Shown here piece by piece: positions 5,764 through 62,138 of a DNA stretch of 64,000 bases. The stretch's first letter is position 1; every line of letters begins with the position of its first letter. The notes below the pieces were generated by a model, which ran no database searches, was not told the origin of the DNA, and saw nothing but the letters and a program-made list of their open reading frames with translations. The position numbers and the translations under genes are program-made. The DNA lies in the NCBI RefSeq assembly GCF_026210795.1, contig NC_089435.1:4526001-4590000 (forward strand), read 5' to 3'. Source of the DNA: Rhizophagus irregularis. Taxonomy: Eukaryota.

Positions 5764-5984
5764 CAATCCGTATGTTTACATATTAAAAATATACCATTAG
5801 TACACGTATTTACATAGAATGTTTTTATTTTATTAATAATATAATGTATAAATAAATATAACAGATAATTTATTATTTAAATTGATATGCAATTAATAAT
5901 TTGTGTAATTAAAATCTAATAAAAGAATACTTCTATTATAGTAATAAAATTATTATAATTAAATATAGAGAAAATAAAAAAAAG

Positions 5985-10412: not shown

Positions 10413-11373
10413 CAGTCAACTCTCTTTATAGTCACACATTTGGGACAGTCCATATTTGGTGATTGTAAAGAGATGTGACTATATAAAAAATTTCTTATAT
10501 TTGTATATCATAATTCCGGCCAAAAATTAACATAATTTTAGCCAGAATTATACTTAAAACTTTATTGTATCGTAACTTCGCCAATATTAATCGTAGAGAG
10601 ATGATCTTACCGCCATTCGATTCGTCTTGATGAGACGGTTCTAATGGTATAAAATACGTCGAAATCCAATCACTAGATTAATTTCCGAAATTAAAAAAAT
10701 ATTAATGGTTTTTGTGTAATAACTCTGCCAATATTGATCCTAGAAAGACGATCTTACTACCATTCGATTCATCTTGATGAGACGAATCTAATGGTATAAG
10801 ATACATCGAAATCCAATCACTAGATCAATTTCCGAAATTAAAAAATATTAAATGGTTTTTAAGTAATAACTCCGTCAATATTGATCACAGAGAGATGAGC
10901 TTACCACCATTCGATTCGTCTCGATGAGGCGATTCCAACGAGCTATAAATCGTCCTTTTACGATCACTAGGTACTGAGAAATCTAGCAAAATGTTAAATG
11001 GCGCAGTAAACGTAAATCAAGAAATATTATAATGCCGATGTTCAACATTTTGTTGAATAACTCGTCAGCCAGTGATAGGAAAAGGATAAAACTACCACCA
11101 TTCGATTCGTCTCAGTGAGACGATTCTAACAAGCTATGATACATCTTTGTACGATTATTAGATGCCAAGTTATTTAATATATTCTTTATATAACTGTGAT
11201 TATAAACGGTTCTTTTTAATATAAGATTTTTAAGGATAGGTGTGATAGTGACTATAGATAGATTGTGACTATATAGGATAGATTTTAATAATAAAGTGTT
11301 TTGAACATTCAACTGGTGTGACTATATAGTAGAATGTGACTATAACGGGAGTGACTATAGAGGGAGTTGACTG
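10413..11373 (+). mobile_element. Tc1/mariner-type MITE, family A, empty copy
   Basis: TIR CAGTCAACTC(T/C)CT(T/C)TATAGTCAC; TA duplication at 10411-12 and 11374-75; removing it restores the transposase frame RHNYTCNKGEF. Confidence 0.95.
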
Positions 11374-19957: not shown

Positions 19958-20278
19958 AGTCTGTGATCTAGTATCACTTGATTTTTGTTTCTTACTAGAT
20001 TTAGTGGTTGATGTTATAGTACTACCATTCTCTGAATTTTCATTACTTGTTAACATCATTAAGACATTGATTTTTGTTTCAGAATCAATCTTGTTACAAT
20101 CATAAGCAAGATGTCTTTTAAGTTTTGCCACTTTAGCTGTGATCCAATAAAATTCACAAAATGAACAAGTTGCTGAGTAGTATCCTTTAGAATTAGGTAC
20201 AGGGTCTCCTTTTATAATCCATTCCTATATTTTACTAATAAGTTGTCCACCTATTTTCTTTAAAGAATTGGATGACAT
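19958..20278 (-). pseudogene. BED zinc-finger N-terminal remnant of a hAT transposase
   Basis: own translation MSSNSLKKIGG...W...YYSATCSFCEFYWITAKVAKLKRHLAYDC with an internal stop; truncated at the MITE. Confidence 0.6.
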
Positions 20279-21295: not shown

Positions 21296-21937
21296 TAGAA
21301 TTTCGAACAGGTTGACCAAATTCAGGTAACCTGACAGGTTGACCTGAATTTTTCAGGTCAGGTTTAGCAATTGCAATTCAGCATCAGTTTAGGTTGTAAG
21401 TATAACCTGAATGACCTGTTGACCTGAAACTATGATTTTATATAATAAGTGAGTTATGGTATTATAATTCACTTTTTATATTGATTTTATATAATAAAAG
21501 TGAATTGCGATATTGGGATTCACTTTTTTATATTGATTTTATATATAAAAAGTGAACTGCGGCATCAGAATTCACTTTTTTATATCGATTATATATATAA
21601 AAGTGAATTGCGGTATCGGAATTCACTTTTTTATATCGATTTTATATATAAAAAGTGAATTTCGGTATCGGAATTCGCTTTTTTATATTGATTTTGTATT
21701 TAAAAAGTTAGTTGCGGTATTGCGATTCACCTTTTTTTATGATTTTAATATAAAAAACTGAATCGCAATATTTCAGAAAAAATGTTTTGCACCATTTTTT
21801 TTGATATTTTAATATAAATCCTGAAAAATTTTCAGGTTTCAGTTCAGGTCAGGTCAAACAGATAATCTGATATAACCTGACCTGAAAAAAAATTTCAGGT
21901 CAGGTTTATCACCTGACCTGACCCATTCGGAACTCTA
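21296..21937. mobile_element. diverged family C MITE
   Basis: TAGAATTTCGAACAGG...CCCATTCGGAACTCTA; same internal repeats. Confidence 0.8.
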
Positions 21938-24900
21938 GTATATATTACTTTGCGAAAGGATTAGAGAAGAGTTTTCCAATTGTTAAATAAATTATTTTTT
22001 ATTCGTTTTTATCTTTAAAACAATTTCGTTTTGATTGTATCATCTTGAATTTACGAGATAGTATGTTACGTGTATATATATATTTCTCAGACGACTAGAC
22101 GTGTAGTCGTGTACAGTATCAGTCGTCAATTTTGTCAATAGGTAAACATTCTTTGATTAAATCTATGCATCATAGTATTAAACGTATTCTAATGAAGCAT
22201 CCTTGGAATATAATTTTGCAATTAAGCATTAAATTTTTTTGGGATGGGAGAATAGAGATATCGGTCGAAGACCGATAACCCCCATCTGCGGTGACCAATA
22301 GAAATTAATGTTACTAATTACAGATTTCAATATTGGATATCATAAAATTTCAGTCCGCATCGACTGAACATATTACAGGTTACAGTACAAGTCAAATAAT
22401 TTATTAATTTATTAAAGGATAATTTTTATTTTTTTATGCTTGTGATCATAATTGGAGATTATTTACGTAGATCAAAAGATTTACAAAACCAATAAAATTT
22501 TTAAATTATATTTGGTACACCTTAAAATTAATTAAAATTAATTAATTAATATATAATACTATTCCCATGAATCAGAAATATTGATCCAATGATCCAATGA
22601 ATCGGAAATATTGCGAAATATAATAACTATTTGAAACCAATAAATACAAATATTTTTTTTCATGTCCTTTGTTCTAATCTAAAAATTGATTCAACTCTTT
22701 CTAAAATGTCCCGTTTGAAAGTCAGACTCACGTATAATAAATATCTTTAAAAAGTTAATTCATAGTAATGTTACAACACATAAAAATATTAATTTCTAAT
22801 AACAAAAAAAATATATATATTAAAAAAAAATTCTTTCTCTTAAAAAAAAACTTAAACTTCTTTTTTGGCGCTCGATCTATATTATAATTCGTGCCTACAT
22901 TTGGTACCACATAATAATTTGTAAAATTATAAACATAAACGGTAAAAATGATCGATAAAATAAAAAAGGTATTAAATCATTTTTAACCTAATATGGTTTT
23001 TTTGTTTGACGCATGTTATTTAATTCAATCATTGCATATGCACGACCAAATTTTACGTAAAGTATATTGATTTGCGTAAAGCCGTATATTGATTTTATGT
23101 AAAGTAAAAAATCGGTAATTATAACATAAGTTATCAATTATTAAAGATGAATTTTATTAACCTGCATACGGTTATTACGGTATATCTTTAATAACAGATA
23201 AATTATGTCCTTTGTTCTAATTTTATAATTGATTAACTTTTTCTTAATGACCGATCGAATTTCAATCAAAGTCTTTATTTAAAAAAAAAAATGTCAGATA
23301 GAAACAAATAATTACAATAATTCATCCTAATTATAGGAAACAAAAGACTTTTTGATGATAATATATATTTAAGTCGGATCATTAACTCTGAAACGAATGC
23401 GTCATCAACATGATAAAAGAATATTCTTAAAACTTCAAACCTCGTTCGTATACGTGATGTTATAATATAATATCTTCAATGTCTTGTGAATGTAATTCAC
23501 CCAAGACTCCCAATGTTCGGCGATATGTTCATTCGGCAAATTATCCATTTGGCGAAATGTCCATTCGAAATGGTAGTTTCGGCGAAACGTACTTTTCGGT
23601 GAAATTAATCATGTCGAACGTTTGATTGCATGTGAGAATCAAAAATTAAACCTAATTTAACATTTTACACGGCATAAATTTATTAAACTGTGAAACCCGG
23701 CAATAAACAAATGTCATGATAAAGAAATGTATACATGTATATTGATGTATATTGTTCTCAATTACTTAAAATGATATCCTGAGTACAATCTTTACCAAAA
23801 ATAAATCATCTGAAACTGAAATTTTATCAAAAAAAATAACTAAAAAAAAAACCACAATTACTAAGGAACAAAGATTCATGAATATTCGGATTTTCAATAT
23901 TTTAAAAAAATTGATGATCTTCATGAACACAAACTTTGTTTATTTTTTCTTTTACAAAGAATATATTTATTAAAACTTTGTAATCTAAATTTAAACCTTT
24001 TGACCTAAATTGCTTACGTAAAACTGATCTTTGTCTTTTTTGACTAGTTTATGTATTTATAATTCTTATGGCGTGATTGATTCATGTGAATTTAGTTTCA
24101 TCACGTGAGATTAAGCAAAATATTTATCATTAAAGATCATCTTGACCCAAATGTGGTTTTCGTCGCGCTGTATCCGGAATTTTTTAAAGTAATTTACATT
24201 TTATAATACGTTGCATACATAAATACCAGTAATGTTTCCAGGTTACAGATTTATTTACAATTATATGGATAATCAGATATATTATCGCAATTATCTCTTT
24301 ATTTTCTATATACAGGACGAATATTTTTAGAAATTGTATGACAATTTCGTTTTTACTTAAAGATTGAAACGATTAAATCACCTTTTTAACTATTAATATC
24401 AATAATGCATTATCTGAAACGAAATATGAGTATATGACATCAATACATCAATATCAATCATTAATTGTTATTAATAACGAAAAACGCTCGTTCTTTGACA
24501 AAGAGATAAAGAATAATTTATAAATTTTGTAACTTAATTATAAATACATTTACGAAAATAATTAATAAAAATATTATGATAAAAATATATTTCACGTAAT
24601 TAATTCATTGTTATATCTCATGTTTCACAAAATCAATTTCAGATAAAAAATTTTTGTCAATTATTTCTTTAATAAAGAAACTTGGTGAGCATGAAATCAC
24701 GTTAATTGGTTTTTTACATTTTCATTGATGTCTTTAAAGTTGTTCATTGTACTTTTTTTCTTCATTGCTTATTAGTTCTGACTAACTATTTTGAATCTAA
24801 CAATTGATCATCGTGTTACTTTATTTTTAACGACACACTTTTTTAATAATAAATTACAAGTTACACAATTAATTTTGGTTCTTTGTCTGGAATTATTTTT

Positions 24901-41591: not shown

Positions 41592-42497
41592 TGTTATTAA
41601 ATTTAATAAAATGTAAAAGTGATATTTTTAAATGTTTTTATTGTAAAAGTAAATAAAATAAAATTTTTTATTATAATATTCTAAGAAAAAAATATCTTTT
41701 TTTGTCTTTAAAGATAAATGTTATAAGCCAATCAAAATTTAGAAGTATGCCACAAAATCACATAGAAGAAAATTTTGTTTGATGCTGATTACTTTGCCAA
41801 GAAAGAATTTTGATGTTTGTATAGTAAAGTAAATAAAAATATTACAAATATGACACTATGTTATATACAAAGTAATATTAATGATAATATAGCAGATATT
41901 CTAATACATAAATTTTATTATTTTAATAATGTTAATATAATTACAAATGTGTTTTACAAATTATTTAGTAAAGAAATTACAATTAAGAAAAATAAAATCA
42001 CTAAAAGAACTTCTTTATTTCTGAACTAAAATACATTTTAAAAAGTATTTTACAGCTTTTTAGTTCTTTAACAATATTATTATTATCTGCTGCAATCAAT
42101 ATTTCTTTTCAGAATAGATAATCATTATTTAGTTCTTAATTCCAATAATTTATAATTTTTGCATTTGATTTCAGATTTTTCAGTTTTTTCAATAGATAAA
42201 GCAAAATATATATTGTATAACAAAAGAATATAGATTGCCTACTAGTTATGAATTGTAAAATTCTATATTATTATTTAAAATATCAAGTAAAGTATATACC
42301 TTATAAGTCATTTCACCATTAGAATTGCAAATTGCTAATCTTTAATTAACCAAATTATTTGTAATATTTATCATAATATTTGAAGAATATACACTCCCCG
42401 GTAAAAAGTATCTGACTACCCTAAAAATTAAAAATCATAAAAAATTCAGTGGGCCCAACAATAAATTTATATTTATTTTAAAAGTTCGAGACATGAG

Positions 42498-42730
42498 TAA
42501 GGTTGCTTGCCGAAACCTAGGGGTTTAGGCAAGATGGCATTTCGCCGAAAAGCGAAATTCTGCCGAAACTATATTAAAGTTATATTAAAAACTGGTGAAA
42601 CTTTGGAGAAAGGTGAAACTGCCGAAACTTATTATAAATTCCAAGACTGCCAAAACTCTGCCAAAACTATAATAAATCTATAGTAAAATTTTGACGAAAC
42701 TAATCATAGGATTTTGAAGAGGCAACCTTA
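42498..42730. mobile_element. family B hAT MITE (opposite orientation to the 11544 copy)
   Basis: TAAGGTTGC...GCAACCTTA; perfect TSD GACATGAG. Confidence 0.92.
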
Positions 42731-42961
42731 GACATGAGACACTTTTTAAAAGTATTTTTTTAGTTTAATTATTAGTAAAAATTGACGGAAATTTTTAATT
42801 TTAAAAATGGCAAAATTCTTAACTTTTTAACTAAAGCAGTTACGGCCAAATGAATGCCAGAAATCAATTCTTTGACTAAAAAATAGCTTATGTTTAAAAA
42901 ATCAGAAAGGTTGGACTGGTAGTTGTCAAAAAATCCACCACTGAAGATTATAATTTTTATA

Positions 42962-43158
42962 CAGTGATACCTCTATAAGTGCACCCTCTATAAGTGCACG
43001 CACTATATAAATTCTCTTTAAGTGCACGGTGGATCTGATCCCAACTTATAAGAGCTCTTAATATTTTACTCTCTATAAATGCACACTCTCTCTAAGTGCA
43101 CATTCTACTATTTTTTTACTATGGTCCCAAGGGTGGTGCACTTAGAGAGGTGTTACTG
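42962..43158. mobile_element. short Tc1/mariner-type MITE
   Basis: TA|CAGTGATACCTCTATAAGTGCACC...GGTGCACTTAGAGAGGTGTTACTG|TA. Confidence 0.88.
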
Positions 43159-44764
43159 TATGTAAAAACAGTAAAATCACCATTTTTGCCAAATTTTAGT
43201 GATCTTCAGTAGTGGATTTTTTGACAACTACCAGTCCAACCTTTCTGATTTTTTAAACATAAGCTATTTTTTAGTCAAAGAATTGATTTCTGGCATTCAT
43301 TTGGCTGTAACTACTCTAGTTAAAAAGTTAAGAATTTTGCCATTTTTAAAATTAAAAATTTCTGCTAATTTTTACTAATAATTAAGCTAAAAAACACTTT
43401 TAAAAAGTGTCTCATGTCTCGAACTTTTAAAATAAATATAAATTTATTGTTGGGCCCACTGAATTTTTTATAATTTTATAATTTTTAGGGTGATTGGATA
43501 CTTTTTACCAGAAAGTGTACATTTTAGTGGTAAATTTTTAATGAGTAAATTTTTACTAAAACTTATAAAAGTTCTCTAGTATACTTAGTTTGAAATCATT
43601 TATTAATTTAACTACAAATTAGAAGTATACTTAGTTTAAGATCATTTATTAATTTAATTACAAATTAGATAAATAATAATATTTTCATTTATCATTATGT
43701 GCAATATATTCAATATATTTTAAAATGTTCTGAATATTTGAATCATTTAACAATTTTAGTATTTTCACTTTATGCTTTAAAATTTTTTTTTTTTATTAAT
43801 TTATTATAAATGTAATTTTGTCATATTATAACTATGCTTACTTATATATACTAAATTTATAAAAATGAAAAAAATAAAATATATATAAGAACTAAACATT
43901 ATGAGACATAATTACTTTTTCAAAGAAAAAGTTAACCTGTTATTTAAACTAGTACAGTCAACTCTCTTTATAGTCACACATTTGGGACAGTCCATATTTG
44001 GTGATTATAAAGAGATGTGACTATATAAAAAATTTCTTATATTTGTATATCATAATTCCGGCCAAAAATTAACATAATTTTAGCCAGAATTATACTTAAA
44101 ACTTTATTGTATCGTAACTTCGCCAATATTAATCGTAGAGAGATGATCTTACCGCCATTCGATTCGTCTTGATGAGACGGTTCTAATGGTATAAAATACG
44201 TCGAAATCCAATCACTAGATTAATTTCCGAAATTAAAAAAATATTAATGGTTTTTGTGTAATAACTCTGCCAATATTGATCCTAGAAAGACGATCTTACT
44301 ACCATTCGATTCGTCTTGATGAGACAAATCTAATGGTATAAGATACATCGAAATCCAATCACTAGATCAATTTCCGAAATTAAAAAATATTAAATGGTTT
44401 TTAAGTAATAACTCCGTCAATATTGATCACAGAGAGATGAGCTTACCACCATTCGATTCGTCTCGATGAGGCGATTCCAACGAGCTATAAATCGTCATTT
44501 TACAATCACTAGGTACCGAGAAATCTAGCAAAATGTTAAATGGCGCAGTAAACGTAAATCAAGAAATATAATAATGCCGATGTTTAACATTTTGTTGAAT
44601 AACTCGTCAGCCAGTGATCGGAAAAGGATAAAACTAAAAACTAACTCTCTCCCGTTCTGCTCACTTGACAATATTTACGAAAAAATAAAAAATTTTTTCG
44701 GAGTTTTTTATTACTTTTTCTTTATAATTTCTTTATTTTAGATAACTACTACGACACTTTACAA

Positions 44765-46261
44765 ATGGGTAAAGATAACAAAAAGAAAAATAACCAGTCT
44801 AACAAAGATACTACATCTAAACGTCCTGCCTCTAGCTCTCCAACTGGCAACGTTTCTGGTCAAGGTTCCTCTATGTCTGGCCCTTCGAACACTCCACCTT
44901 CGACCACCTCTACTAATAAACGTACCAGAGTCAGTGCTGAAGACTCTGTCATGGATGTTGATAAACCTCTCACGCCTCCTGGCCCTGTTGAGACAACTTC
45001 CGCTGAGATACCTTCTCAACCTGATACCTCCTCTCTTGATGCCTCTCAACACGCTCCTAACGATAAAGGCAAAAGCCCAGAAATTACTCCCGCCGTTTCC
45101 TTCCCTGAACGTGCTGCCTCCCCGGACGCGTCCCAAGCTGCAGTACAGTCTCAACCTACACTTTTTTACGCCTCGGCTGCTCCTAATGACGTCGAAGGCT
45201 TTTGGACTCACTTCGCTTCGAACCGCGACGCGTGCGACGCGGTTGATAGGCAACTTTCCTTGTTTCCCTCTTATGGTAGTCGTGCCACGTGTAGTGGTTC
45301 CAACGATTTGAAGAGGATCATCATCCACTTCCGAAAAAAGGATGATCTTGACAAAGCCACAGCTTCCGCTATGGATTCCTTGTTTGGCTTGCATTTCCAT
45401 GCATATGACCCCCAGGCTATTAAGGCAGACGAACACGCGCGTACCCTGGTGGTTACCGATATCCCCCTTTTTATAACTGACGCTCTTTTGCGTGGTACTT
45501 TTTCTCGTTACGGCAATATTACTTGCTGCCATACCCGTTTATCTAAACTTTATCGTACTGCATACATTACCTTTGAATCTACTGGTGCTTTACGGGACCT
45601 CGACTCTACCTGGGGCGTCCTTTGTGGAGGACATTGTTTGCGTATCTGCCCCGCTACCTTCTCACCTGACCAACGTGCTGAAAGACGCGCTTATGTCGCT
45701 TTACTTGCCGGTCTTCCGCGTGGTACTATAGCGGTCGATCTTGCTGAAATTGCCGATGAAATTTCCGCTAGATCTGTCAATGTTCCCTTCTCTATGAATT
45801 CCTACAATCCGAAACCTTACGCTTATTGCCATTTTGCCTCTGAAACGGCTATGGAAAACGCTAAATCTATTTCATGTGCCCTTAAGAAAGTTGGCCTTAC
45901 TTGGCATTCTCCGGATGAAGTTACTTCTCTTTGTCATCGATGTGGTCGCCCGAACTGTAACCCTGATCGATGTGGTTCTTCATCTAGACCTAATCGCCCT
46001 TCTCGCCCTTGGCAATCTAATGATAAATTACGTGCTTTATATAATAAGCATCTACCTCCTTCTCATCCTGCTAAACGACATAACCGTTTTGCCCGCCCTG
46101 ATAACAATAATGATGGACAAAGCCGTACCAATGCTTCTCGCCATCGTTCTAAATCCAGACCTAATAACCGACAACAATCTCGTTCTCGTTCTCAACATCG
46201 ACCATGGAATCGTGACAATCTTAACAACAACAATAATAATCAACGTCGTCGTATTCCCTGA
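44765..46261 (+). CDS. LINE ORF1 (RRM-like domains and Cys knuckle)
   Basis: RTLVVTDIPLF..FSRYGNI..TAYITF; LLAGLP..YAYCHF; CHRCGRPNC; RS-rich tail. Confidence 0.85.
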   Translation: MGKDNKKKNNQSNKDTTSKRPASSSPTGNVSGQGSSMSGPSNTPPSTTSTNKRTRVSAEDSVMDVDKPLTPPGPVETTSAEIPSQPDTSSLDASQHAPNDKGKSPEITPAVSFPERAASPDASQAAVQSQPTLFYASAAPNDVEGFWTHFASNRDACDAVDRQLSLFPSYGSRATCSGSNDLKRIIIHFRKKDDLDKATASAMDSLFGLHFHAYDPQAIKADEHARTLVVTDIPLFITDALLRGTFSRYGNITCCHTRLSKLYRTAYITFESTGALRDLDSTWGVLCGGHCLRICPATFSPDQRAERRAYVALLAGLPRGTIAVDLAEIADEISARSVNVPFSMNSYNPKPYAYCHFASETAMENAKSISCALKKVGLTWHSPDEVTSLCHRCGRPNCNPDRCGSSSRPNRPSRPWQSNDKLRALYNKHLPPSHPAKRHNRFARPDNNNDGQSRTNASRHRSKSRPNNRQQSRSRSQHRPWNRDNLNNNNNNQRRRIP

Positions 46262-46779
46262 TGCAAATGAACTTGATCACTATGCCTGATGGCATGGATG
46301 TTACATATCCTGCTCCTCCTACTGTGCTTACTGATTGGAAATCTATTGGTGCTGCTCTTGAAAAAGTAGTTGAAGAATTAGCCCTTCTTACCACACAATT
46401 TGCTTCTATGAACAGCCGCATCACTAATTTGGAATCTGCTATGGCTGCTCGTACTCCTATTCCTGGACCTTTTGTCGCTAAACCTTCTTCCTACATCCCT
46501 TCCTCTATGCAAGGATGGGATGATACAGTGAATCGAACTGATAATAATATCCTTGTTGATGTTAATTCTCCACCTTTGCAATCAACAAGTGGTTTTTCCC
46601 CGATTCCTCATTTTGCTCCCATCCCACCTTCCAACGTCACTCCTTCCTCCCCTATTGATATGGAACAGCGTCTCTCCTCTCTTTCTGATACTGTTGCCTC
46701 TTTGGCTGGTTCTATTAAAGAAGGAATCCAACAAAACAACCTCATCTTGGCTCGGCAACAAGGCCAAGCCAATCAATAA
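46261..46779 (+). CDS. ORF1 C-terminal segment or separate small ORF with coiled-coil-like stretches
   Basis: ATG overlaps the ORF1 stop (TGATG); heptad-like LEKVVEELALLTTQFASMNSRITNLE. Confidence 0.55.
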   Translation: MQMNLITMPDGMDVTYPAPPTVLTDWKSIGAALEKVVEELALLTTQFASMNSRITNLESAMAARTPIPGPFVAKPSSYIPSSMQGWDDTVNRTDNNILVDVNSPPLQSTSGFSPIPHFAPIPPSNVTPSSPIDMEQRLSSLSDTVASLAGSIKEGIQQNNLILARQQGQANQ

Positions 46780-46833
46780 TTGTTCTTTTTTTTTTTTCCC
46801 CCTTCTTTATTACCGATTTATCAGTGTGTAATA

Positions 46834-49800
46834 ATGATGGACAACAATAAACATAATTTTTCCCCTCACCCCTCTCCCCTTATTAAATTTGGTCAATTAA
46901 ATGTTAATGGTTTATGTTCCCCGGTTCGACAACAACATTTGCTTAATTTTTTTCTTCACTCCTCTTTTGGTGCTTTATCTATTAATGATACGCGTCTTTC
47001 CCCTTCAAATGCTAAATTTATTTTTAAAAATGAACACTCCCAACATCACTTTAAGTCCTATTGGGCTTGTTCATCTTCTTCTTCTCGCCCTCATGATGGT
47101 GTTGGTATTTTATTACGTAATCCCCTTCATAAACATGTTCAAACAATTGATCCTTGGAACGGTCGACTTCTTAAATTAGATTTGTTTTTTCATCAAACTA
47201 AAATTTCTATTATTTCTGTATATTATCCCCCTTCCGGCTCTGTTCATCAATCTATTTGCAATGATCTTATTGCCAAACTTCTTTCTTGGCTCGATTATGC
47301 CCGAGCTAATAATTATTTTGTAGTTATTCTTGGCGACTTCAATGCTGATGTAATCGCTCATTCTAATTATTCACCTAATCATTTTAAGCTTCTTCGCTTG
47401 CTTTCCTCTCGGTTTTTTACCGATCATCAAGCTCACTCCTCTACAAATGGTCCTGATCCCACTTTCTTTTATGATAATGGATCTTCTCGACTGGATTATA
47501 TTTGGTCTTCGCCTGGTTTTCCTGCCCCTGGTCTTTTTTCGCAAGTGGTTACTTGTCCGAATCTTTTTGATCGACCTTTCACCGACCACAAAGTTCTTAC
47601 AACTGTTTTTGACTTTAATTCTTGTTTGGCCATTTTGGCTAAATCTCGTCTTAAACAAAAAAAAGAAATGCGTACTATTTTTTCTTATGCTTCCACTTCA
47701 GTTGAACAATGGAATAATTTTACCGTTGAAGTAGATGATTCTCTTGGAGTTTATTTAGATAGCCATTATCGCCCTAATTCTGATTTCTCCTCCCTTTCTC
47801 TTGATCGTATGTGGCATGCATTGAAAGCTGCCATAATTAGTGCTGCAATTGAAACATTACCTTTTCAAAAAGTCTCTAATACACACCGACATTCGTACTC
47901 TCCTGAATTAACTAAACTTATTGCTATTAACAAGTTTTTAGATCGATTTTTATATCGCCTTACTACTCGTCGCTCTAATCGGCCCGCTCAGATTGTGCAA
48001 ATGACTGCTGCCTTGCCTTCCCATCTTGAGAACCTAGCTTCCTTACTTCCTGATTATTCAGTTCCTACCTATTCCACCACCCCTGCATCTGTATTTAAAT
48101 CGTTTTTACGATCACAGAAGAATTTAGTTTCTGCCTTTTTATCTACTAAATTCGCCCAACATCTTACGGACTCAGTGGAATATTATACTGCACTACGTGA
48201 CGAACACTTTTCGAACTCGCTCGGCACCTTTATCGATTCTGCCTTATCAGTAGAAAAACGTTCAATTGTTCTTGACCGTGTTCTGGTCGTTTTGGACTCA
48301 ACTCCTACTTTATTAACGGATCCTTCGGATATTAAACATGCAGCTGTTTCTCATTTCCAATCAATTGTTTCTCCTCCGTTGGTCCACTATTCTTCCATCA
48401 CTTCATTTCCCGCCCGATGGCAACAAGCTTACACTCCTCTTACAAATGTGTCTGCTTCATTATATGATCCTGTTTTGGCGCCTATTTCCCTACAAGAATG
48501 GTCTGCTGTGATTTCCTCCATGCCAAATAATAAAGCTTCCGGCCCTTCAAAAATTTCCTATGAGATGATTAAACACTTGTCCGGTGAAGCCTTGGATTTT
48601 TCTCTTTTACTTGCCAATACTTGCCTTTCTCGCGGTGATATTCCTGCTGACTGGCGTGAAGCCGTGGTTTATCCTATTCCTAAACCTCATGACTTTGATG
48701 CTCAACTTAAGAACACTCGACCTATTACCCTTCTGGAAACAGTTCGAAAATGTGTAGTTAAGGTCGTCACGAATCGTCTTTCCAACATCCTTGCTGATAG
48801 TAAAATTCTTCAAGGTGGTAATTTTGCTGGTTTACCTGGTGGTTCTACTGATGTCCCTATCAAAATGCTGGATGCGATTATTCATCAACATAAACATGAC
48901 TCTACTGATGATCAGGAACTATGGATCGTTTCTCAAGATATCTCTAAAGCTTTTGATTCTATGGATTTAAATATGCTTAAATTAGCTTTAGATAGGTTAC
49001 ATATCCCTGCACTTTTAGTGCGATTTATTTTAAATCTTTTTACACGACGAAATAATAAGATAATTACTTGTCATGGCGATACAGCTGCTTACAGAGTACG
49101 TGTTGGTATCGATCAGGAGAAATCATTTCCCCTCTTCTTTGGGTTATTTATTTGGATCCTTTACTTACTGTTTTGAATCAACAAGCACGAGATCCCTTTA
49201 TTTTAAAATCTTCAGCCCTTTTAAATTATTCTCCACTTGAATTTGAACAACATTCTTTACCGGTTTCACATTTAACGTTTATGGATGATTCTACACTCAT
49301 TGCTTCTTCAAAATCTGGCATAGAAGACCGTCTTTCTATTACTGCTGAATTTTATACTTTAAATAATGTTCAAGCTAATTCTGCGAAATATGTTCTCCTT
49401 TCATCCTCTTCCCCCTCCTCGAAGATTATTTTTGATCTTTCCCCTTCTCCTTTAGTTCCCATTCCTTTCCTTTCCCTTTCTTCTTTATCTGTTAAAACTT
49501 CGTTTCGTTTTTTAGGAGTATGGTTTTCTTTATCTGCCTCTTCTGCTTTTGTTCTCAGACAAGTGCGCTCCATGGTTAAAGATATGGCAGCTCTCCTGGG
49601 ACCGAAGAAATTATTAGCACAGCATGTGGCCTATCTTTATAATGCTGTCCTTCTTCCGCGATTGGAATTTCGCCTTCAAACTACCCTTTTTTCTGAAAGT
49701 ACTATTCAAACAATTGTCAAGCCTATGTTTTCGGTACTTCGAAGAAAAGCTGGTCTTGCTGCAACTACCCCGTTACCTTTATTATTCCTCAAACTCCCCT

Positions 49801-52208
49801 TTTCTATTCAAAATGCTTTTTATCGCTTTCTTTCTTCCCATATTGCATCTTGGCAAAAAATCTTCACTCACCCTGATTTCAAAAATTTTGCCCTTTATGC
49901 TATCTCCTATCTTCAAGGATATTTGGGTGCTGAGAGTTGCCCGACTACTATCAACTTAGAACCATGGTCACAAATCGTTTCTTTGCGAACGCACACTTTG
50001 TTTAATTCGTTATTGTTTTCTTCGCGTTTGAACATCACGTGGTCTCTTTCCTTCCGGCCTCCGAGGCGTGATCTACAACCTGCTTTGCCACTTCGATCTA
50101 TTCTACCTCATTCCATCTTTCAATCAAGTTGGAAACTTTGGAAAAACCTGAATATATTTGTGCTTGCTCAGTTGGTTTCTCCTTGTGGACGTTATCTTAT
50201 GAATTGGCCTGACCTTCGTTATCTTGGCATCGTTGGTCGTAAAGGACGGATTCCTAATTGGTTTACTTTTATCAATAATAATTTTCTTTCTTCTTTTTCT
50301 TCTACTTTACTTTTATCTTCATATTTTATTAATTCTTCTTTTACTTTAGTTTCTCCTTGTTTATTAGATCATACTGTTAAAGATTATTCTTTTTATCCTC
50401 AATGGGCTATTAATCTTGACTCTGCTACCCAAACTTTATCTGTTGGTCGTGTGTGTATCACCTACAAGAAACAAAACTCGGCTATTATGTCGCATTGGCT
50501 TCCTGTATCTCCCTCGGCTGATGAACGATCCTATAACCCTTGTCCTGGTTGTGCTCTTAACATTCCTGCCTTATCCAAGAAATCTGCTATCAAACAACGT
50601 TGTAATAGTGAGAAGTGTTTTTTCAATATCACCCTGTCGGAAACTGTGGGTTACCCTACTAGAAACGCCAAAGTTTTTGCGGCCTACCTCCCCATCACTC
50701 TTTCTACTTCATGGAGTTATGCCACGTCCTTGGCTCTTGTTCATTTGATGAACCCGCCCTCAACCGCTTCTTTCACCTTTTCTCCTTCTGTTAAGGACCA
50801 TTTAGATGATGATGTTTTGCCGTCTTCTGTGCAATCTTTGTATACCGATGGCTCTTTCCGTCCTGCCAATGATTCTTTATCCTCTTCCATGGCTTCTGCT
50901 TGGATTGCTCTCGATGATGATGGATTTATCCTTGAATCTTCATCCATGCATCTTCCCTCTTGTTTCCCTTCGGCTTTACGTTCTGAAATTTATGCTGTCT
51001 TATTAGGATTGACCGCCCTCTCCCGTGATTCTTCAATTTCTATCTATACTGATTGTAGTCAGTTAATTTCATTATGGACACGTTTTGTTGATGTTCCTTT
51101 CTCACCGAAGTTGCTTCGAGAACCTAATCATCTTCTTTGGTTTTCTATTCGACAACTTATTATGGATCGTAACCTCCATGTCGATTTGATTAAAGTCCCT
51201 GCTCATGGCGATGACATTTATAATGAACAAGCGGATTCTTTGGCAAAAGATGCTCATTCATCTATACAACCTTCTGTTTCGCCTTTGGCATTTTGTCACG
51301 CTCCATGCTTGTTAACTTTTAATTCTTTACCTGTTGACATGAATATTCGTCACTTTCTTCGCTCTATAGCAGACGCTCATGCTCTTTTATCTTTTTGTTC
51401 ATTGGCACGTTTTACTGCTCTTGGTTCTCCTTCACTTTTTGATTGGGCTGGTATATATTTTTGCCTTTCACAAATCAAAGGTTTTGCTTCACATAAGAAT
51501 GGTCGTCCGGAATTCTGGATCTTCCGTATCAAACTCCTTTTGGATATGTTGCCTACCTTAACTACTCTTTAACAACGCAAACCTTACTTATACTCTCCTG
51601 ACTGGCTTTGTCTGCAGTGTAACTCTGCTCCAGAAGATTTGAATCATCTTTGGACTTGTCCTTATATTTTACCGGAATTAAATCCTTGTTTAACACACCG
51701 GTCTGAAGTCATTAAATTTAGAGATTCTTGTTTATCTTCCTTTCTATCCTTGAAATCTTTGGATATTTCTTTTCAAACTGAATTCTTTGCTTTGGAATGT
51801 TGGAACTATGAAGCTCCTTCTTTATCCTGTCTTTGGCTTACTCGAGGATTGTTGCCTGCACATTTAACGACATTTTTGAATCAACATTTCTCTCTTTCTG
51901 TTATATATAAGACTATTTCTCCCCTTCTTAATGACTTCCAAGTCGAATTATATGGTGAAATTTGGCTATGCCGGAATGTTCTTTTTCATGCTTGGGAAGA
52001 GTCGCAGGGTATCTCGGCTGCTTCCAAATTACGTGGCCCTTCTACAAATTCTTCTTCTAATACTATCTCTCCTCATCATCACGACTCCTCTTTGGCGACA
52101 GTTTCTCAGGGATTCCTGGATTTCTTGGATATCCTCTTCTATAATTCGGGGTGGATCATAGATCTCGCACCTGGATTTTCTGCGCCGCTTAACAGTTCAA
52201 CCTCTTAG
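46834..52208 (+). pseudogene. LINE ORF2 (AP endonuclease, reverse transcriptase, RNase H, C-terminal Zn motif), with frameshift and nonsense lesions
   Basis: APE: NVNG, GDFN, SRLDYIW, TDH. RT: KASGP, RPITLLE, DISKAFD, GIDQ/GEIISPLL (frameshift ~49118), FMDD. RNase H: YTDGS, RSE, YTDC, VPAH..NEQAD. TAA at 51570, then CLQC..DLNHLWTC. Confidence 0.93.
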
Positions 52209-53129
52209 GATCTCTTTCTGGTAAACGGACTGGATTTTTGGATGTTGGATAGTTGACTCACACTGGCCTTCGGGTAAAGTTGGGGTATGCGATTCTGTAA
52301 TAGTTTAGTTTTTCTTTGCTTTAATTTATTTTAGTTTAGATTTCTTTACTTGTATGAGTCGTGAAGCTACTCTTTTTTATTTTTATTAGTTTATTTTCTT
52401 ATTTTTGTAATATTGTTCGATGTTATTTTCGAAGTTCTAAATATAAATAAAAGATAAAGTCGTAAGACTGTTTGCACAGGAAAAGGATAAAACTTGGGTT
52501 GGTCACCCTATCTTGGTGGTTAGTCACTGAGACCCTCATTAAGCCTGAGTATGGTGAGGTCGCAGGTTCGATTCCCATGACCACGGAAATAAAAAGAATT
52601 TTACTGCGGACGCTACAACCAATAGCGTGAAGGTACAGGATTAGTGTAGTTGGACTGCATCATGGTGAATTAGTGTGTACGGTTAGGCCGCACATTTCAA
52701 CTAAGGGTCATGGTGTCCTTCTAACGTTCCCTATGAGGCCATTGGTATGTGCGCAGTCCTGTCCTTGAGGTCGCTACTATACCTTAGGGGGACTTCCTGT
52801 CCGGGTGGTCGGCTCTACGATACCGCTTGGGGTCAGTAATGGCTAGATGGTCGTCCTAAATGGTAAAGCTGAGGGTGCAATGTCTTAGTGGTAGTTAGAC
52901 CTTCTGTTAGGTCTTAGACCAACCAAGGTGTTCGTGCACAGAACAGGTAGCATGGCTATGGCTTCGATTCCCTACTCCCTTGGGTCCTTTCGAGGAGAGA
53001 TCCCTGGTGGTTGATACCCACCATAAGGGGTGATCCTGGACAGATGCCTGCTACTTCCTGTCTGAGTGGTCACTACAAAGTATACCACTTGGGGTAAACA
53101 ACTGTACTATCGGTGCTAGGTAATCGCGG

Positions 53130-55528
53130 TAGGGTTGGTAAAATAACCGTTAGTTATGAATTTGGTTAATTAACCGGTTAATTAACGGTTAGTTAACGGT
53201 TAATTAACCCATAAATAACCTGTATATATAATTTTAAGGAAGTTAAAATAAATTTATAATTTATTAAATATTATAAAATTTTAATATATTTTATTTATTC
53301 TTCATCATCTAAATTAATAACATTTGCTTCAAATCCAAATATACTATCATTATCAGAACTATTATTATTATCATCTTCTTTATTTTCATTATCAGAACTA
53401 TTATTACTATCTTCTTCATTTTCATTAAAATTACTAATCTGTTTCTTTTTTTGTATTTTTACAAGTCTATTACACATTCGAAGATTTCCATAAATATAAA
53501 CTAATTTTTTAACACGTTCATTTTTCAATCTATTTCGAATTTTATTATGAATAAAACCAAAAGTAGAAAAATTTCTTTCTGCAGCTGCAGAAGATGTAGG
53601 AATTGAGAGAATTTTAATAGCCAGTTGTTGAAGTTTACTAGTTGGCCATGATTGCCACCATAAAGATGAATTAAGAATATTAGCAGATTTCCAAATAATT
53701 TCATTATCATAAGGTGAATTTTTATTACGAAAATTTACCAATTCAGCAAATAATTCTACTGCTTCTTCCTGATTAAATCTTTTATTTACAAATGTTGTAA
53801 ATTCTACATAACCAATAGATTCAACTTCATCATTTTTACTTTTTTCCAAAAATTGTGGATCTAACATATAAGCTGTTATCATAATAGGATGATAAGTATA
53901 TTCCCATCGCTTTGCAATAAGTTCTTGAAGTTTATCAGAAAAATTACAATCTATTTGATTAATTTGATTCATTACTTCTTTGAAATATGAATAAACATTT
54001 GAAAGAATTGAAATATCTGATTCAAATAACTTTAATGCTGAAACCATTGGTTCCATAATTTTTGTTATTATATCTAAATCTTCCCAAAACTCATCTGATA
54101 AAATATGAGCTCTTAAAGTTAAATCCATATTTTGACGAATTCTTATATCCATTAAAGCCTGTTCAAGTGCTGTTCTTGAATTTTGAAGTGATTGAAAACA
54201 AGCAAGATGTGTTCCCCATCTTGTAAGTGCTGGTAAAACCAATGCAATTTCTTTAGAATAATTTTCTTTTTGAATACGTTTCAATTTAGCTGTTGCCTGT
54301 ACATGTGCCTTAAAATAATTGACCAACTTTTTTGCATTTTCAACAACAGATTTAATTTGATCAATCTTTAAAATATCACTAATTAAAAGATTCATTACAT
54401 GAGAATTACATCCTAAACAAACAATACTTGGATAACTATCTTCAATAATTCGCCAAGCTGCTTTCATTACACTAGCTGTATCTGTAATAACTGCTGAAAA
54501 TTTATTAATACCAACAATTTCCATTTGTTTAATAATTTCATCTGCAACCCATTTAGCTGTATGAGATTCTTCACCAGAATAAATAGCATCAAAGAATAAT
54601 GGTTTTGGAGTACAAATAACAAAATTTTGAACTGATTCTCGATTAATATTAGACCAACCATCTGAAACCATTGTAAGAGATTTAGCTTGTAAAATTTGTT
54701 CATTACATTCAGCTTTAACTTCATCAAAAACATCATCAAGTAATTCATCAGCAAGTTTTCTTCGATTAGGTAATTTGAATGCTGGACGTAATTGTTGAAA
54801 AAACTGAATAACATAATTATTTTCAAGAAAAGAAAAAGGAACTCCAGCAGCAAATAATGCTTGAGCTAGTAAAATTTCAAGAGTATCTTGTTCTTCTTCA
54901 CTCATACGATCAACAAAATTCTCAATTGTTGTATTTTTTAAATGCTTTTTTGATGTTTTTACTGTAGGAATAAAAGTAGAAGTAGTAGCATCAGAAGTTT
55001 CTAATAGTTCAGGGAATTTGTTGTTTCTTTGTTTTTGCACTTTCTGGAGCTCTAGGACAACTATCATTAAGATGAACTTGCATTCTTTTAGCTGTACCTT
55101 GTTCAAAAACTTTAGAACAATAATTACAACGTACAGAAGGATGTGTTTTTTTCTTAGACCTACTACTTTCTTCATTACTTTCTGCTTCAGTAATTATTGT
55201 CCAATGTTTCCAAACAGTTCCCTTTTTTTTTACCATGATAATGAACAATAAATTTGCAAAAAAAAGTGTTTTTTTAAAAAAAATTTATCTTAAAAAAAAA
55301 GATCATGCAATATGTAGATCATAGATTTAATCAATATTTATATTAATTAATATTTAATTGTGTAACAAAATAATGGATTATCATTTAATCACATGATTTA
55401 AATTCTGCATTTTGATTGGCTAATTATAAATAACGGTTAATTAACCATTTTAAATCAATCATAACTAACAAAATTAACGGTTAATTAACCATGGTTAATT
55501 AACCGTGGTTAATTAACCCCCATCCCTA
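53130..55528 (-). mobile_element. hAT DNA transposon, ~2.4 kb
   Basis: termini TAGGGTTGG / CCATCCCTA; perfect 8-bp TSD AATCGCGG; subterminal TTAACCG/CGGTTAA repeats. Confidence 0.95.
53295..55248 (-). CDS. hAT transposase (BED finger + DUF659-like catalytic region + dimerisation domain); one frame break near 55020
   Basis: WKHW..CNYC..HLNDSC; SDGWSN; ITDTAS; CNSHVMNL; TRW; SSAAAERNFS. Confidence 0.9.
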
Positions 55529-55898
55529 AATCGCGGGCTGTAGTGGCCTTTGAGTGAGACTTAGTACCTAAAATGGTAGTATGGAAGGGTACTAGATGGT
55601 TGATGTTACCTGTCGAAAGTCCTCCATGAAAGTAGATGCTCTCTAAAGGTCGTTAAATAAATTGAGTATCAGTATCATGCAATAGGTATAGGATGAGTAG
55701 GCGGCGTGTGCTAGCTTCAGATCGGCCTAAAATGGCCCGATGGGAGATGTCTTCTATAGCGGTGCTCGTTACCTGAGGAATTAAGTACTGGTATAATGGT
55801 TGCCCATTGAAGATGATAGGACGCATACCCGCATTAGTCTCATAAGAGGCAATGGGTGGTCTGGCCGTAAACACTTGCAAAGGAAAAGGATAAAACTA

Positions 55899-56875
55899 GG
55901 GTTGGTCACCCTATCTTGGTGGTTAGTCACTAAGACCCTCATTAAACCTGAGTATGGTGAGGTCGCAGGTTCGATTCCCATGACCACGGAAATAAAAAGA
56001 ATTTTACTGCGGACGCTACAACCAATAGCGTGAAGGTACAGGGATTAGTGTAGTTGGACTGCATCATGGGTAATAGCGTGTACGGCAGGCCGCGCATTTC
56101 AAGTAGGGGTCGTAGTGTCTAACGTTCCCACTGTGCATGGGGCCATTGGCATGTGCGCAGTCCTGTCCTTGAGGTCACTACTATACCTTGGGGGGACTTC
56201 CTGTCCGGGTGGTCACTCTACGATACCGCTTGGGGTCAATAATGGCTAGATGGTCGTCCTAGATGGTAAAGCTGAGGGTGCAATGTCTTAGTGGTAGTTA
56301 GACCTTCTGTTAGGTCTTAGACCAGCCAAGGTGTTCGTGCGCAGAACAGGTAGCATGGCTATGGGGTTCGATTCCCTACTCCTTAGGTCCTGGTTGGTGA
56401 TCCTGGTGGTTGATACCCACCATAAGGGGTGATCCTGGACGGATCTGCTACTTCACTCCTGTCTGAGTGGTCACTACAAAGTATACCACTTGGGGTAAAC
56501 AACTGTACTATCGGTGCTAGGTAATCGCGGACTGTAGTGGCCTTTGAGTGAGACTTAGTACCTAAAATGGTAGTATGGAAGGGTACTAGATGGTTGATGT
56601 TACCTGTCGAAAGTCCTCCAATGAAAGTAGATGCTTCTCTAAAGGTCGTTAAATAAATTGAGTATCGGTATCATGCAATGGGTATAGGATGAGTAGGCGG
56701 CGTGTACCTAGCTTCAGATCAGCCTAAAATGGCCCGATAGTGGATGTCTTCTATAGTGGTGCTGTTAGCGAGGAATTAAGTCTTTCGGTATAATGGTTGC
56801 GATTGAAGATGATAGGAGCACGACCCGAGATTAGTCGCAGAGGCAATGGGTGGTCTGGCCGTAAACACTTGCAAA
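55899..56875 (+). mobile_element. tRNA-headed SINE-like element, copy 2 (intact, 977 bp)
   Basis: same head; second GGTTCGATTCC near 56365; flanked by GGAAAAGGATAAAACTA at 55882 and 56876. Confidence 0.88.
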
Positions 56876-58609
56876 GGAAAAGGATAAAACTACCACCATT
56901 CGATTCGTCTTCAGTGGCAGACCAATTCTAACAAGCTATGATACATCTTTGTACGATTATTAGATGCCAAGTTATTTAATATATTCTTTATATAACTGCG
57001 ATTATAAACGGTTCTTTTTAATATAAGATTTTTGAGGATAGGTGTGATAGTGACTATAGATAGATTGTGACTATATAGGATAGATTTTAATAATAAAGTG
57101 TTTTGAACATTCAACTGGTGTGACTATATAGTAGAATGTGACTATAACGGGAGTGACTATAGAGGGAGTTGACTGTACACCAATATGTTATTAATAAAAA
57201 ATTTTTTTTAAAAATTAAAGTAAATTTTTTAAATTATTTTATTTATAATTTAAATTTTAAGACATAAATGTAAATTTATTAAAGTTTTCAATTTAAATAA
57301 AATTTTTTATTATTTATCAAATTCTTCAACTTTAGAATCTTTATTTTCATTATATTGACATATAAATATTTATATTTTCATCTTATCAAAACACTTTTTT
57401 CAAAATCTAACTGTAACTTTAAATCTTAAAAACATATAATAATTTGTCTCTAATAGTAAGAAGATTAGGATAAAGCTGGCTTTCAGTTAGTAATTACACT
57501 TTTTACAGTAGACTAAACTCCTTTGATCAGTTGTAGTTTATAATAGTAAAGTAAGGTATATGAAACACTAATGTTCATTTTGAAATATATGGTCATTTTT
57601 TTCAAGTTTTTGTCATAATAGATGTATTGAAAGTGGGCATCAGAAATATTTGCAGAAATAACAAGACTGTGTATAAGCTCAACAATATCACAGTTAAGCT
57701 CTTTTTTTTGGTTAGCCATAATTTTTTTGTGATAAGATTTTATTTTTATTATATTCAGCAATCACGTGCATAATTGTTGCCTCTTTAATAACAATAACTG
57801 TAGTAACCTTTTTACGTAGTGATAAATCTTAAGTTGTTTCCAATATTGTCAAATATTTAAAAATTATTGATAAACGTGAATAATTACTTTTTTTCATTGA
57901 TTGTTAATTAAAAAAATTAAAAAATTTAGTCATATTCTGTATTATCTATAAAGTAAAAAAAGTGTATTTTTGTTGATAAAGTTAAAGGTAAAAATATTTC
58001 TTACCTATTATATAATAGTTATGTTCATATAACTTGATTGTTGATTTTTATGTAATATTACCAATTTAGGTAATAATTTTTATGTATCAACACTTTTGCA
58101 CTGGACTATATATTATTATGATTTTTTTCCTTTTTAGTTAATTAACCAATAGAATTTAAGCAAATCCTAAAGTAAGATTTCATATAAAAGTGAAATTCCT
58201 ACTGGCAACATATCTTAGTAGTAAGTAAAATCATAGTACAACCTAAATTAATTGTAAAAAAAAGCTAGTATATTTTATAAATATCATATGATCCAGCAAT
58301 TCAATTTTAATAAACATTTTTTTATTTTGATTAGCTTAATATAATTTACAATAACAAAAAAAAATTATTAAAATCAGATCAGATTACTAAAATTCTGATT
58401 TGATCTGAATTTTTAGGAGCTAATCTAAATGATTATATCATTATTATAAATAATAATACAACTAAAAAAATTTTTAGGTAACTGTCAAGATCTGCCTTAA
58501 AATTTGCCCAATAACTTTTCTAATAAAATGCTAAATTATTCCATTTATTTTACTTTATACTTTAAAATATTAAAATTAAAAATCATTTTTATAACAGCTA
58601 GTCTATTAT

Positions 58610-59785
58610 TAAAGCTCCTAACGGTTTAAGCCAAACTGGGAAACCGATCTGAAACTGGCTCAAAATTTGATTCAGTTCAGTTTGGGTATTAGAACCGAAA
58701 AATTGGCAGTTTGGTTCAGTTTAATCCAATTTTTTATAAAAATGTGAAAACCCAAATAGCCACCCATCTAGTGATCGTACAAAGTCAAGCCATATATCAT
58801 TGGATTCGTCTCAACAAAACGCATCAAATGGAGGTAAAATCATGTCTCTAACATCGATAGATCACACGTTAACCCACGCTAAATGTTTTATCAATAATTG
58901 AAATTAGCAAGCTATTTATCAGTGCTAGAGGCATGATCTTAGCACCATTCAACGCGTTTCAGTGAGACAAATCCAATGAATATAAATTCGTCCATGTACA
59001 ACCACTGGATGGCGAATAATGTCAAGTTTTGCATTTTTTTAAAATTTTTGAACGTTAAAAATTAAAAATACTGATACATGAATTTATTCGTTGTCCAATG
59101 GTCATACAAATATGAATTAGGACTCATTGGATTCGTCTCGATGAGACAAGTTGAATGGTGGTAAGATCACGTCTTTAGCATCAATAAATAGCTTGTTAAT
59201 GCCAATTTTTTATAAATCATTTAGCATAAATTAACATATGATCTATTGATGCTAGAGACATGATCTCACCACCATTCGACTTGTCTCATCGAGACGAATC
59301 TAATGAGTCCTAATTTATATTTGTACGACCATTGGATGACGAATAAATTCATGTATCGGAATTTTTAGTTTTTAATGCTCAAAAATTTTAAAAAAATGTG
59401 AAACTTCATATACAGACAAATTTATATTCATTGGATTCGTCTCACTGAGATGCGTCGAATAGCGCTAAGATCATATCTCTAGCATCGATAGATAGCTTGA
59501 TAATTTCAATTATTGATAAATTATTTAGTGTGAATTAACGTATGATCTATCAATACTAGAGACATGATCTTACCGCCATTCGACGTGTCTTGTCAAGACG
59601 AATTTAATGATATATGGCTTGACTTTGTATGATCACTAGATGAATGGCTATTCGATTTTTCACATTTTTATAAAAATCGGATTAAACTGAACCGAACTGC
59701 CGGTTTTTTGGTTTGGTTCTTACGGATTTCAGCTCTAATCTGAACTGTCTGTAATCCAGAACAAACTGACCTGTTCGGAGCTTTA
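58610..59785. mobile_element. hAT-type non-autonomous element with six internal palindromic modules
   Basis: TAAAGCTCC...GGAGCTTTA; TSD TCTATTAT. Confidence 0.88.
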
Positions 59786-61239: not shown

Positions 61240-62138
61240 ATTGGAATCATCTCAATAAGACAAATCTAATGGTAGTAAAATCAAATTTTTAGGATTAATA
61301 GTTAATAAAAAATTAAATAAAATATAAATGATACATTTTTATATTTATATTTTACTTAATTTCTCATCAAGTATTAACCCTAGAAATGTGATTTTACTAC
61401 CATTAGATTCGCCTTATTGAGACGATTCCAATGAGCTATATTTTATCCCTTTCTGATTATTGGATCAAAAGTTAGCAAACTGCTTGATTGGTGATGATAT
61501 TTGGTGAAAATGCTAATCAGTTACCAATTGGTTACCAATTAGCTACTTAATTGGTGACCGATTGGTGACTGATTGATACCTGATTTTTCACTTTTCGATC
61601 TGTGCATAAAAATATTACTACCACTTTTTGACCATTAATTAGAGAATCGTAGAAATGTAATATATAACAGTATTTTTTATTTATTTTTTCTAATAACTTT
61701 TATTGTTAATAGTTATGAATAAAATTTCTTGGCAATTGAATAGAACATTAACAAAAATTGCAATTAATCTTCATTATTTTTTGCAATTATATTATCTTAG
61801 GTTAGAATACCAGTCAAGTATTTTTTGCTAAAATAATCGAATCACTTGACTTTTTGTTTTATTTTTTTACTTCTGATTGAAAAAGTGGGCAAAAGCCATA
61901 TTAAGAAAAATAATAGTAAGTTTTTTAAAAATATTAAGTTAAAAGAAATTTTTCTTAATAAATGCCACTAGTGTCAAATATCACTAGTAGAAAAATCTGA
62001 ATCTCTTAACTTTTTTTTACTTTTTTATAGCATATATAGTATATACTACATATATATATCATAAGGTATTATAAAAAAATTTTAATTTTTTTTTCCCTAA
62101 ATTTTCTACTCTTTTACTAATAATACTAGTGATACAGA

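Follow-up and report, generated by a model that had tools for sequence, protein, structure and literature searches.

Probable recurrent insertion of a LINE and a SINE at a single 16-bp site within a MITE of the mycorrhizal fungus Rhizophagus irregularis

Long interspersed nuclear elements (LINEs) with an apurinic/apyrimidinic endonuclease-like (APE) domain can be directed to one site of a DNA transposon, and the closest described system is that of crocodilians (Kojima 2015, PMC4494074; statements on cited papers refer to the passages of them that were consulted). There, the APE-type LINE Tx1-Mar and the short interspersed nuclear element (SINE) SINEU-3 share one site in the non-autonomous Mariner-type element Mariner-N4_AMi, with a 16-bp duplication and with tandem SINEs sandwiching the duplication, and independent insertion is shown by truncated copies (77 of 88; full-length copies, 313 of 347). 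Here we analyse a similar arrangement in a 64,000-bp stretch of Rhizophagus irregularis (contig NC_089435.1, positions 4,526,001 to 4,590,000; hereafter the window), in which a LINE and two copies of a SINE lie within a miniature inverted-repeat transposable element (MITE) and are bounded by copies of one 16-mer, GGAAAAGGATAAAACT. The strategy, including the SINE and the Mariner-type MITE, is already published for crocodilians, and the fungal case is a variant of it. The host here is a fungus, the SINE is tRNA-headed and about 980 bp long whereas the crocodilian SINE is U2-derived, the LINE has RNase H and its own long branch, the target sequence is unrelated, and the fungal elements are young, with MITE copies 98% alike and unbroken second open reading frames (ORF2s) on record. 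We consider it highly probable that this MITE site receives repeated, independent insertions of the LINE family and of the tRNA-headed SINE, each with a 16-bp duplication, and that arrays grow in this way; the likely cause is that the LINE ORF2 protein nicks the site and also copies the SINE RNA.

Fixed targets are also found in other APE-type elements. Tx1L of Xenopus is likewise a sequence-specific APE retrotransposon inside a DNA transposon, Tx1D (PMC4494074, PMC1950540), and its isolated endonuclease nicks its own site (PMC1950540); Tx1D, however, is of the piggyBac type, the Tx1L hairpin loop has 11 residues as against 7 in the fungal LINE, and no SINE partner is described in the passages of these two papers. 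The insect elements R1Bm and TRAS1 likewise depend on APE endonuclease specificity (PMC1950540, PMC1919474). The R1Bm hairpin loop is two residues shorter than that of L1, as in the fungal LINE (PMC1950540), and RNase H occurs in the R1 clade (PMC4640811); their targets are rDNA and telomeres, whereas the reverse transcriptase (RT) of the fungal LINE is nearest to that of human L1 among solved structures. Grem-LINE1 of Mucor circinelloides is likewise an L1-like LINE of an early-diverging fungus with a non-random location (bioRxiv 10.1101/706580), but it shows a regional, pericentromeric enrichment and a poly(A) signal, and neither RNase H nor a fixed target is described in the passages of that preprint. 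For fungi, SINE-LINE pairs are listed only in Magnaporthe and Blumeria, without target specificity (PMC3747384). The curated R. irregularis library lists SINE, L1-Tx1, L1-R1 and I families (PMC11075540) and probably holds the MITE-targeting LINE and SINE under some name; 'site-specific' and 'nested' are absent from the text of that paper and 'target' from one supplementary table, and no target analysis appears in these parts. In the literature searched, no target-specific LINE or SINE was found for Glomeromycota or other fungi, and Repbase, subscription journals or the files of that library may hold one.

The array extends from 43955 to 57175 of the window in the order MITE-left, target, LINE, target, SINE1 (with a hAT transposon), target, SINE2, target, MITE-right, and an empty copy of the MITE lies upstream. 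The features are the following (window coordinates):

10413..11373, + strand: empty MITE, 961 bp, with TA flanks and terminal inverted repeats starting CAGTCAACTC
11078..11093, + strand: unoccupied target, directly before the fourth internal repeat unit of the MITE
43955..44619, + strand: left part of the filled MITE, TA at 43953-43954
44620..44635, + strand: target copy 1, 16-bp duplication
44636..52478, + strand: LINE, full-length but broken, 7843 bp, without poly(A) tail, 3' end ...TTTGCACA
44765..46779, + strand: ORF1 of the LINE, RRM and a cysteine knuckle-like stretch, split near 46256-46261 into 498 and 172 amino acids
46834..52208, + strand: ORF2 of the LINE, APE endonuclease, RT (FMDD), RNase H, C-terminal CCHC
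52479..52494, + strand: target copy 2, exact 16-mer
52495..55881, + strand: SINE1, 980 bp without the hAT, tRNA-like head called by ARAGORN at relaxed threshold only
53130..55528, - strand: hAT in SINE1, open transposase frame of 626 amino acids
55882..55897, + strand: target copy 3, exact 16-mer
55898..56875, + strand: SINE2, 978 bp, 48.5% GC, ending ...TTGCAAA, without poly(A)
56876..56891, + strand: target copy 4, exact 16-mer
56892..57175, + strand: right part of the filled MITE, TA at 57176-57177

Exact copies of the 16-mer start at 11078, 44620, 52479, 55882 and 56876, all on the + strand (five against 0.19 expected, 100 shuffles), and no further match with up to two mismatches was found in the 64-kb window. 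One copy belongs to the empty MITE and four to the filled one. A preliminary description of this DNA, made from the sequence alone, had given the same four positions, the alternation of target with LINE, SINE1 and SINE2, and a single site in the empty MITE, all of which agree with the exact matches and the alignments. It had put the site at 16-17 bp: the duplication comprises 16 bp at most junctions (8 of the 10 LINE joints and 5 of the 6 SINE joints listed below end at the T that is its 16th base), and the A at position 17 falls outside it, as part of the next element or of the MITE. The 16-mer alone forms the terminal repeat of the LINE. Alignment of the filled MITE (43955-44635 plus 56892-57175) with the empty one gave 954 matches, 12 mismatches and 3 gap events; the two copies are 98% identical, which indicates that the site pre-exists in the MITE. 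The 16-mer is native to this element, since it stands in register with the four internal repeat units; at the three other units of the MITE in the window the sequence at this position is different and no insertion is present. The host element shows a TA duplication, terminal inverted repeats, no ORF and many copies, the last evidenced by varied flanks at the MITE end in the public sequencing runs X2 and X24, and from its TA and inverted-repeat marks we take it to be of the Tc1/mariner (pogo-like) type.

Independent insertion was analysed by aligning contigs of public sequencing runs to the MITE-left/target/LINE sequence and to SINE2. A joint enters the tables only if the reference contains both of its sides, so the tables prove preference, not exclusivity. 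For the LINE, 10 of the 15 listed joints (108 in all) link the end of the target to 10 different internal points, and an 11th point (50367) was obtained from a separate table; one of these truncation joints is common to two runs, and some target-LINE joints contain a few extra letters. For the SINE, 6 of 15 listed joints (25 in all), from two runs, link the target to internal points, with a 7th point (56702) at low depth.

LINE truncation points behind the target: 47432, 49126, 51136, 51921, 51989, 52078, 52084, 52088, 52224, 52380
SINE truncation points behind the target: 55979, 56513, 56525, 56532, 56559, 56676

Under generous assumptions (a 150-Mb genome, at most 5000 sites and at most 3000 copies) chance would yield no more than 0.05 such insertions. 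At least 11 LINE and 6-7 SINE truncated copies start right after the 16-mer, and therefore this sequence was duplicated as the target site when copies of both elements inserted independently at the same nucleotide; it is not an element terminus, a result of hitchhiking or a misassembly. Truncation at the 5' end together with target duplication, the signature of target-primed reverse transcription (TPRT), is thus present for the LINE and for the SINE, which is non-coding and multicopy. These data bear out the earlier proposal that the site is used repeatedly and that each insertion regenerates the target, since an intact 16-mer is found on both flanks. As regards flank frequency, the passages of PMC4494074 take one flank type in more than 20% of copies as the mark of a sequence-specific non-LTR (long terminal repeat) element. 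In run X3, a single unbranched contig extends from MITE-left through the target and 245 bases into the LINE from its 5' end; its depth is 2815, as against a summed depth of 2466 just inside the LINE, which suggests that most full-length LINE copies of this run have the MITE-target flank. In addition, the gene model of a diverged subfamily (P0092, 62% in ORF1) starts within MITE-like sequence that precedes ORF1 and has the same orientation.

In TPRT, the RT primes on a nick and the target becomes duplicated. At this site, the APE domain would nick the bottom strand at the position that precedes the first G (...GATC/GGAAAAGG... on the top strand), presumably reading the target sequence by itself. 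Copying by the RT would start at the 3' end of the RNA, which has no tail (GCACA for the LINE, GCAAA for the SINE), and read-through RNA carrying the target might assist, as the SINE has no terminator before 57015. As the joints show, the second cut is made 16 bp away, varying by 1-2 bases, and copying frequently halts early, with 5'-truncated copies as the result. The 16-mer stays intact on both flanks and the site is reused, as the array exemplifies. The distance of the second cut may be set by geometry, since it is 16 bp at two unrelated targets (see the kinase site below). From the identical site, strand and duplication length we infer that the LINE family mobilises the SINE. The MITE would serve as a 'safe harbour', because aiming at a dispensable repeat may lower gene damage.

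Several observations weigh against this proposal. The 3' ends of LINE and SINE have only CGTAA..TTGCA[AC]A in common and share no significant fold, so that the partnership of the two elements rests on the shared site, and the LINE copy of the window, being broken, cannot be an active donor. The LINE-end pattern had no match in genome and metagenome contigs, nor had the SINE-end pattern in genome and viral contigs. Three contigs of run X12 carry other sequence before 44680, either from off-target insertion or from a variant copy; 583 and 657 loose ends lie outside those listed (six per run); and in the sister clade described below the 3' end of locus L017 is off target (one of three 3' junctions). 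These last points would suit a mere preference, that is, a strong hot spot with many or most copies elsewhere, as would the crocodilian SINEU-1 and SINEU-2, of which only 23% and 13% are at the target (PMC4494074). We judge such a preference unlikely, given the contig of run X3 and the lack of loose ends at the LINE or SINE 3' end among the six listed per run, the latter being a weak test. As an unbiased count, the loose-end tables were rejected: the MITE-end control (15 contigs, X2) was too weak for a SINE depth that is about eightfold lower. Pattern scans for the empty-site 27-mer and an RT search, both in viral contigs, gave no match.

Specificity might instead come mainly from RNA-DNA pairing, read-through transcripts with the target at their 3' end annealing to a loosely chosen nick, so that the endonuclease need not be very specific. 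Consistent with this, both elements lack a poly(A) tail, the RNA polymerase III transcript of the SINE would include the target, and co-transcription with the target can strengthen specific integration (Kojima 2015, PMC4494074). A first nick at the site would still be needed, however, and the three paralogous MITE units stand without insertion; furthermore, two kinase-targeting families have a common hairpin loop unlike that of the MITE-targeting LINE, as if the protein read the site, an observation that kinship explains equally well. RNA reads at the junctions were too few to assess read-through. We regard pairing as a rather doubtful main source of specificity, and in itself it is compatible with nicking and copying by the ORF2 protein. 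Much less credible is a single old insertion that was multiplied with the MITE, or an array produced by unequal crossing-over. The MITE is mobile and abundant, and composite copies moving as units may explain some full-length copies, but the truncation series, which is also the test used in the crocodilian study (PMC4494074), refutes hitchhiking as sole cause; besides, the two SINEs of the array differ at 42 sites and 26 gaps, and the run majority is carried at 13 of 16 sites by SINE1 and not by SINE2. Hitchhiking is therefore very improbable. The two elements might also have the 16-mer as a constant terminus of their own, or the array might be misassembled. These were two of the three ways in which the preliminary description might have failed, and we find them extremely improbable: the empty MITE has the 16-mer once, in register with its own repeat units, truncated copies follow it at arbitrary internal points, and contigs of public runs contain junctions of both types.

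The LINE is an APE-type non-LTR retrotransposon, with ORF1, an ORF2 that encodes APE and RT, and no LTRs; Pfam matches were RRM_1, Exo_endo_phos, RVT_1 and RNase_H. ORF2 of the window copy is damaged by a frameshift near 49114, a stop at 51570 and a one-base difference near 52109. Searches with the APE-RT region returned 102 protein matches, the named ones nearly all from R. irregularis, and a search for longer proteins gave 87 matches, from R. irregularis, R. clarus and JGI records. One of these proteins, P0105, is an unbroken ORF2 of 1774 amino acids, 91% identical over its second half, which heads a 143-member cluster (fragments included). The 5' motif AACTCTCTCC of the LINE is also 5'-terminal in five distant relatives. 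The motif AACTCT[CT]TCC (window 44643-44652), also present in the metagenome loci L001, L009, L020, L023 and L027, with five of the six matches at the 5' end, is a candidate internal promoter element.

The catalytic APE motifs are conserved across 101 aligned relatives. At residue 52 of ORF2 (46987-46989), 84 of the 101 aligned sequences have aspartate, not the metal-binding glutamate as in L1; most metagenome relatives retain the glutamate. The structure model of the APE domain (mean predicted confidence, pLDDT, 89) had human L1 endonuclease as its best match, tied with cellular AP endonucleases (L1-endonuclease fold, Z 24.4, root-mean-square deviation 2.9 over 226 residues). In the hairpin loop of the domain, the T and S anchors are separated by 7 residues. 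The fold matches listed did not include the endonucleases of R1Bm or TRAS1, which excludes nothing. The RT matched human L1 best among PDB structures (67 bits, against 47 bits for R2), and 77 of 89 relatives with the knuckle possess the C-terminal LPT..CCHC motif, presumably an L1-group trait. RNase H, already noted in the preliminary description, was confirmed by the Pfam match and by the residues D-E-D-H-D in P0105. The same description had invoked Tx1-clade elements: targeting of a DNA transposon stands as an analogy with them, and we do not assign the LINE to that clade, since it carries RNase H and its loop is short (7 residues as against the 11 of Tx1L, the latter a trait of one member and not of the clade). 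The list of RNase H-bearing clades in the passages of PMC4640811 omits Tx1. The APE-RT-RNase H architecture fits Proto1 or the RNase H-bearing L1 group; a Proto1 reference was not found.

In the poly(A) RNA run X24, the 3' untranslated region of the LINE (window 52243-52494) was covered about 1300-fold and the LINE body near zero, with many inserts ending near 52290 and 52420. Short RNA, truncated copies inside other transcripts and capture of A-rich sequence are candidate sources of this signal. The gene model P0345 fuses the LINE C-terminus to integrase-like sequence from an LTR element that adjoins the LINE at another locus.

The SINE measures 978-980 bp, with 48-50% GC and no ORF of 100 amino acids, and it is multicopy, with thousands of matching contigs in public runs. 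ARAGORN called a tRNA at positions 18-93 of its head only at the 80-90% threshold and none at default, and an A-box-like stretch was seen there by eye. SINE2 has a perfect B-box match at 55968 and a second B box at 56365; the latter (56365-56375) indicates that the SINE is possibly composite or dimeric. The Rfam scan of 44000-57300 gave nothing relevant, including no tRNA match in the SINE, and thus did not point to any known ribozyme or retrozyme. Folding revealed no significant structure in the SINE head or at the 3' ends of both elements (3' ends z -0.6 to 1.2). No run of five T exists in the SINE, the first one being located at 57015, about 140 bases into the MITE, so that an RNA polymerase III transcript would run through the target.

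With the hAT removed, SINE1 aligned with SINE2 at 916 matches, 42 mismatches and 26 gap events in 1000 columns, in keeping with the earlier statement that they differ by many substitutions and indels. SINE2 is the more diverged of the two, as would fit an array with the newest member on the left; the LINE, however, is also degraded. The hAT, flanked by the 8-bp duplication AATCGCGG at 53122-53129 and 55529-55536, is present in SINE1 alone, as previously described. Three levels are nested here, hAT in SINE in MITE. The insertion habit accounts for part of the nested repeat structure in the genome of this model plant symbiont. It also shows that LINE/SINE pairs aimed at transposons are not confined to animals but exist in fungi, where they apparently arose by convergence in a lineage with RNase H, and the young elements with unbroken frames offer material on how APE endonucleases gain specificity, which is relevant to site-directed gene insertion.

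Relatives were collected by a profile scan of metagenomes, of which the best 80 of 155 loci (25-50% identity) were used; none of these loci closely matched the MITE or the SINE. An RT phylogeny was built from 112 sequences, namely 75 of the 80 loci (short RT matches were dropped) and 37 chosen proteins, with P0100-P0102 as generic outgroups. The metagenome loci and the Rhizophagus elements form one divergent group, on a long branch from the three outgroups, and among 20 relatives looked up the named ones were from Rhizophagus or Entrophospora only.

One soil-metagenome sister clade (support 1.0) has a fixed target of its own, CA[CT]AATCC[CT]AAATCAC, the antisense of the codons for D-L-G-L-C in genes for protein kinases. 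Judging from the kinase type and the named relatives, these contigs would come from mycorrhizal fungi. The targets are located as follows:

L015: 6324-6339
L016: 84-126 and 7823-7838
L017: 577-592
L021: 1108-1123
L048: 282-297

All four available 5' junctions (L016, L017, L021 and L048) lie at the kinase motif, in four paralogues 76-86% alike, and two of three 3' junctions (L015 and L016) resume with the same 16 bases, a duplication of about 16 bp. By Pfam, the 5' flank encodes the C-lobe of the kinase and the 3' flank the part that comes before it, and the two overlap at the target motif. In L016 the target is doubled at the 5' end. The endonuclease hairpin loop is common to the two kinase-targeting families and differs from the 7-residue loop of the MITE-targeting LINE, a comparison confounded by kinship. 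This clade is a new and more surprising lead, and it suggests that fixed targets can include a gene family of the host. Evenly poised between true and false, in our estimate, is the wider proposal that arbuscular mycorrhizal fungi harbour their own RNase H-bearing LINE lineage with a fixed stagger of about 16 bp, re-aimed at a Mariner-type MITE (with a passenger SINE), at other DNA-transposon repeats and at the D-L-G activation-loop codons of a hugely expanded kinase family. If true, these LINEs would be a directed force in kinase-gene turnover and would provide a natural panel of retargeted integration enzymes.

Other metagenome loci showed further junctions. The sequence 5' of the LINE in L009 (1-725) encodes the N-terminal lobe of a kinase-like gene and meets the LINE at an A-run; read by eye, this is an insertion at a different kinase site. 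L001 (132-142) and L002 (5551-5561) have GTGTTACATTT common to the 5' and 3' junctions, a flank match of at least 11 bases within one family; their 3' flank resembles a DNA-transposon repeat and their tail that of the window LINE. In L004, L006 and L023, LINE copies follow one another head to tail, abutting or nearly so, and likewise the gene models P0111 and P0128 are two LINE copies fused in tandem; a target-like motif in L006 was discarded as ORF1 coding sequence of the tandem copy. Several other loci end in poly(A).

Further tandem or fold-back repeats were observed in the window at 5319-6543, 7278-7839, 14176-15106, 42386-43523, 58693-59713 and 61240-61432. Some of them contain the internal repeat unit of the MITE, and the one at 42386-43523 is apparently split by an insert. 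A perfect 50-bp palindrome (17979-18028) adjoins a nested cluster of fold-back repeats at 18041-21939.

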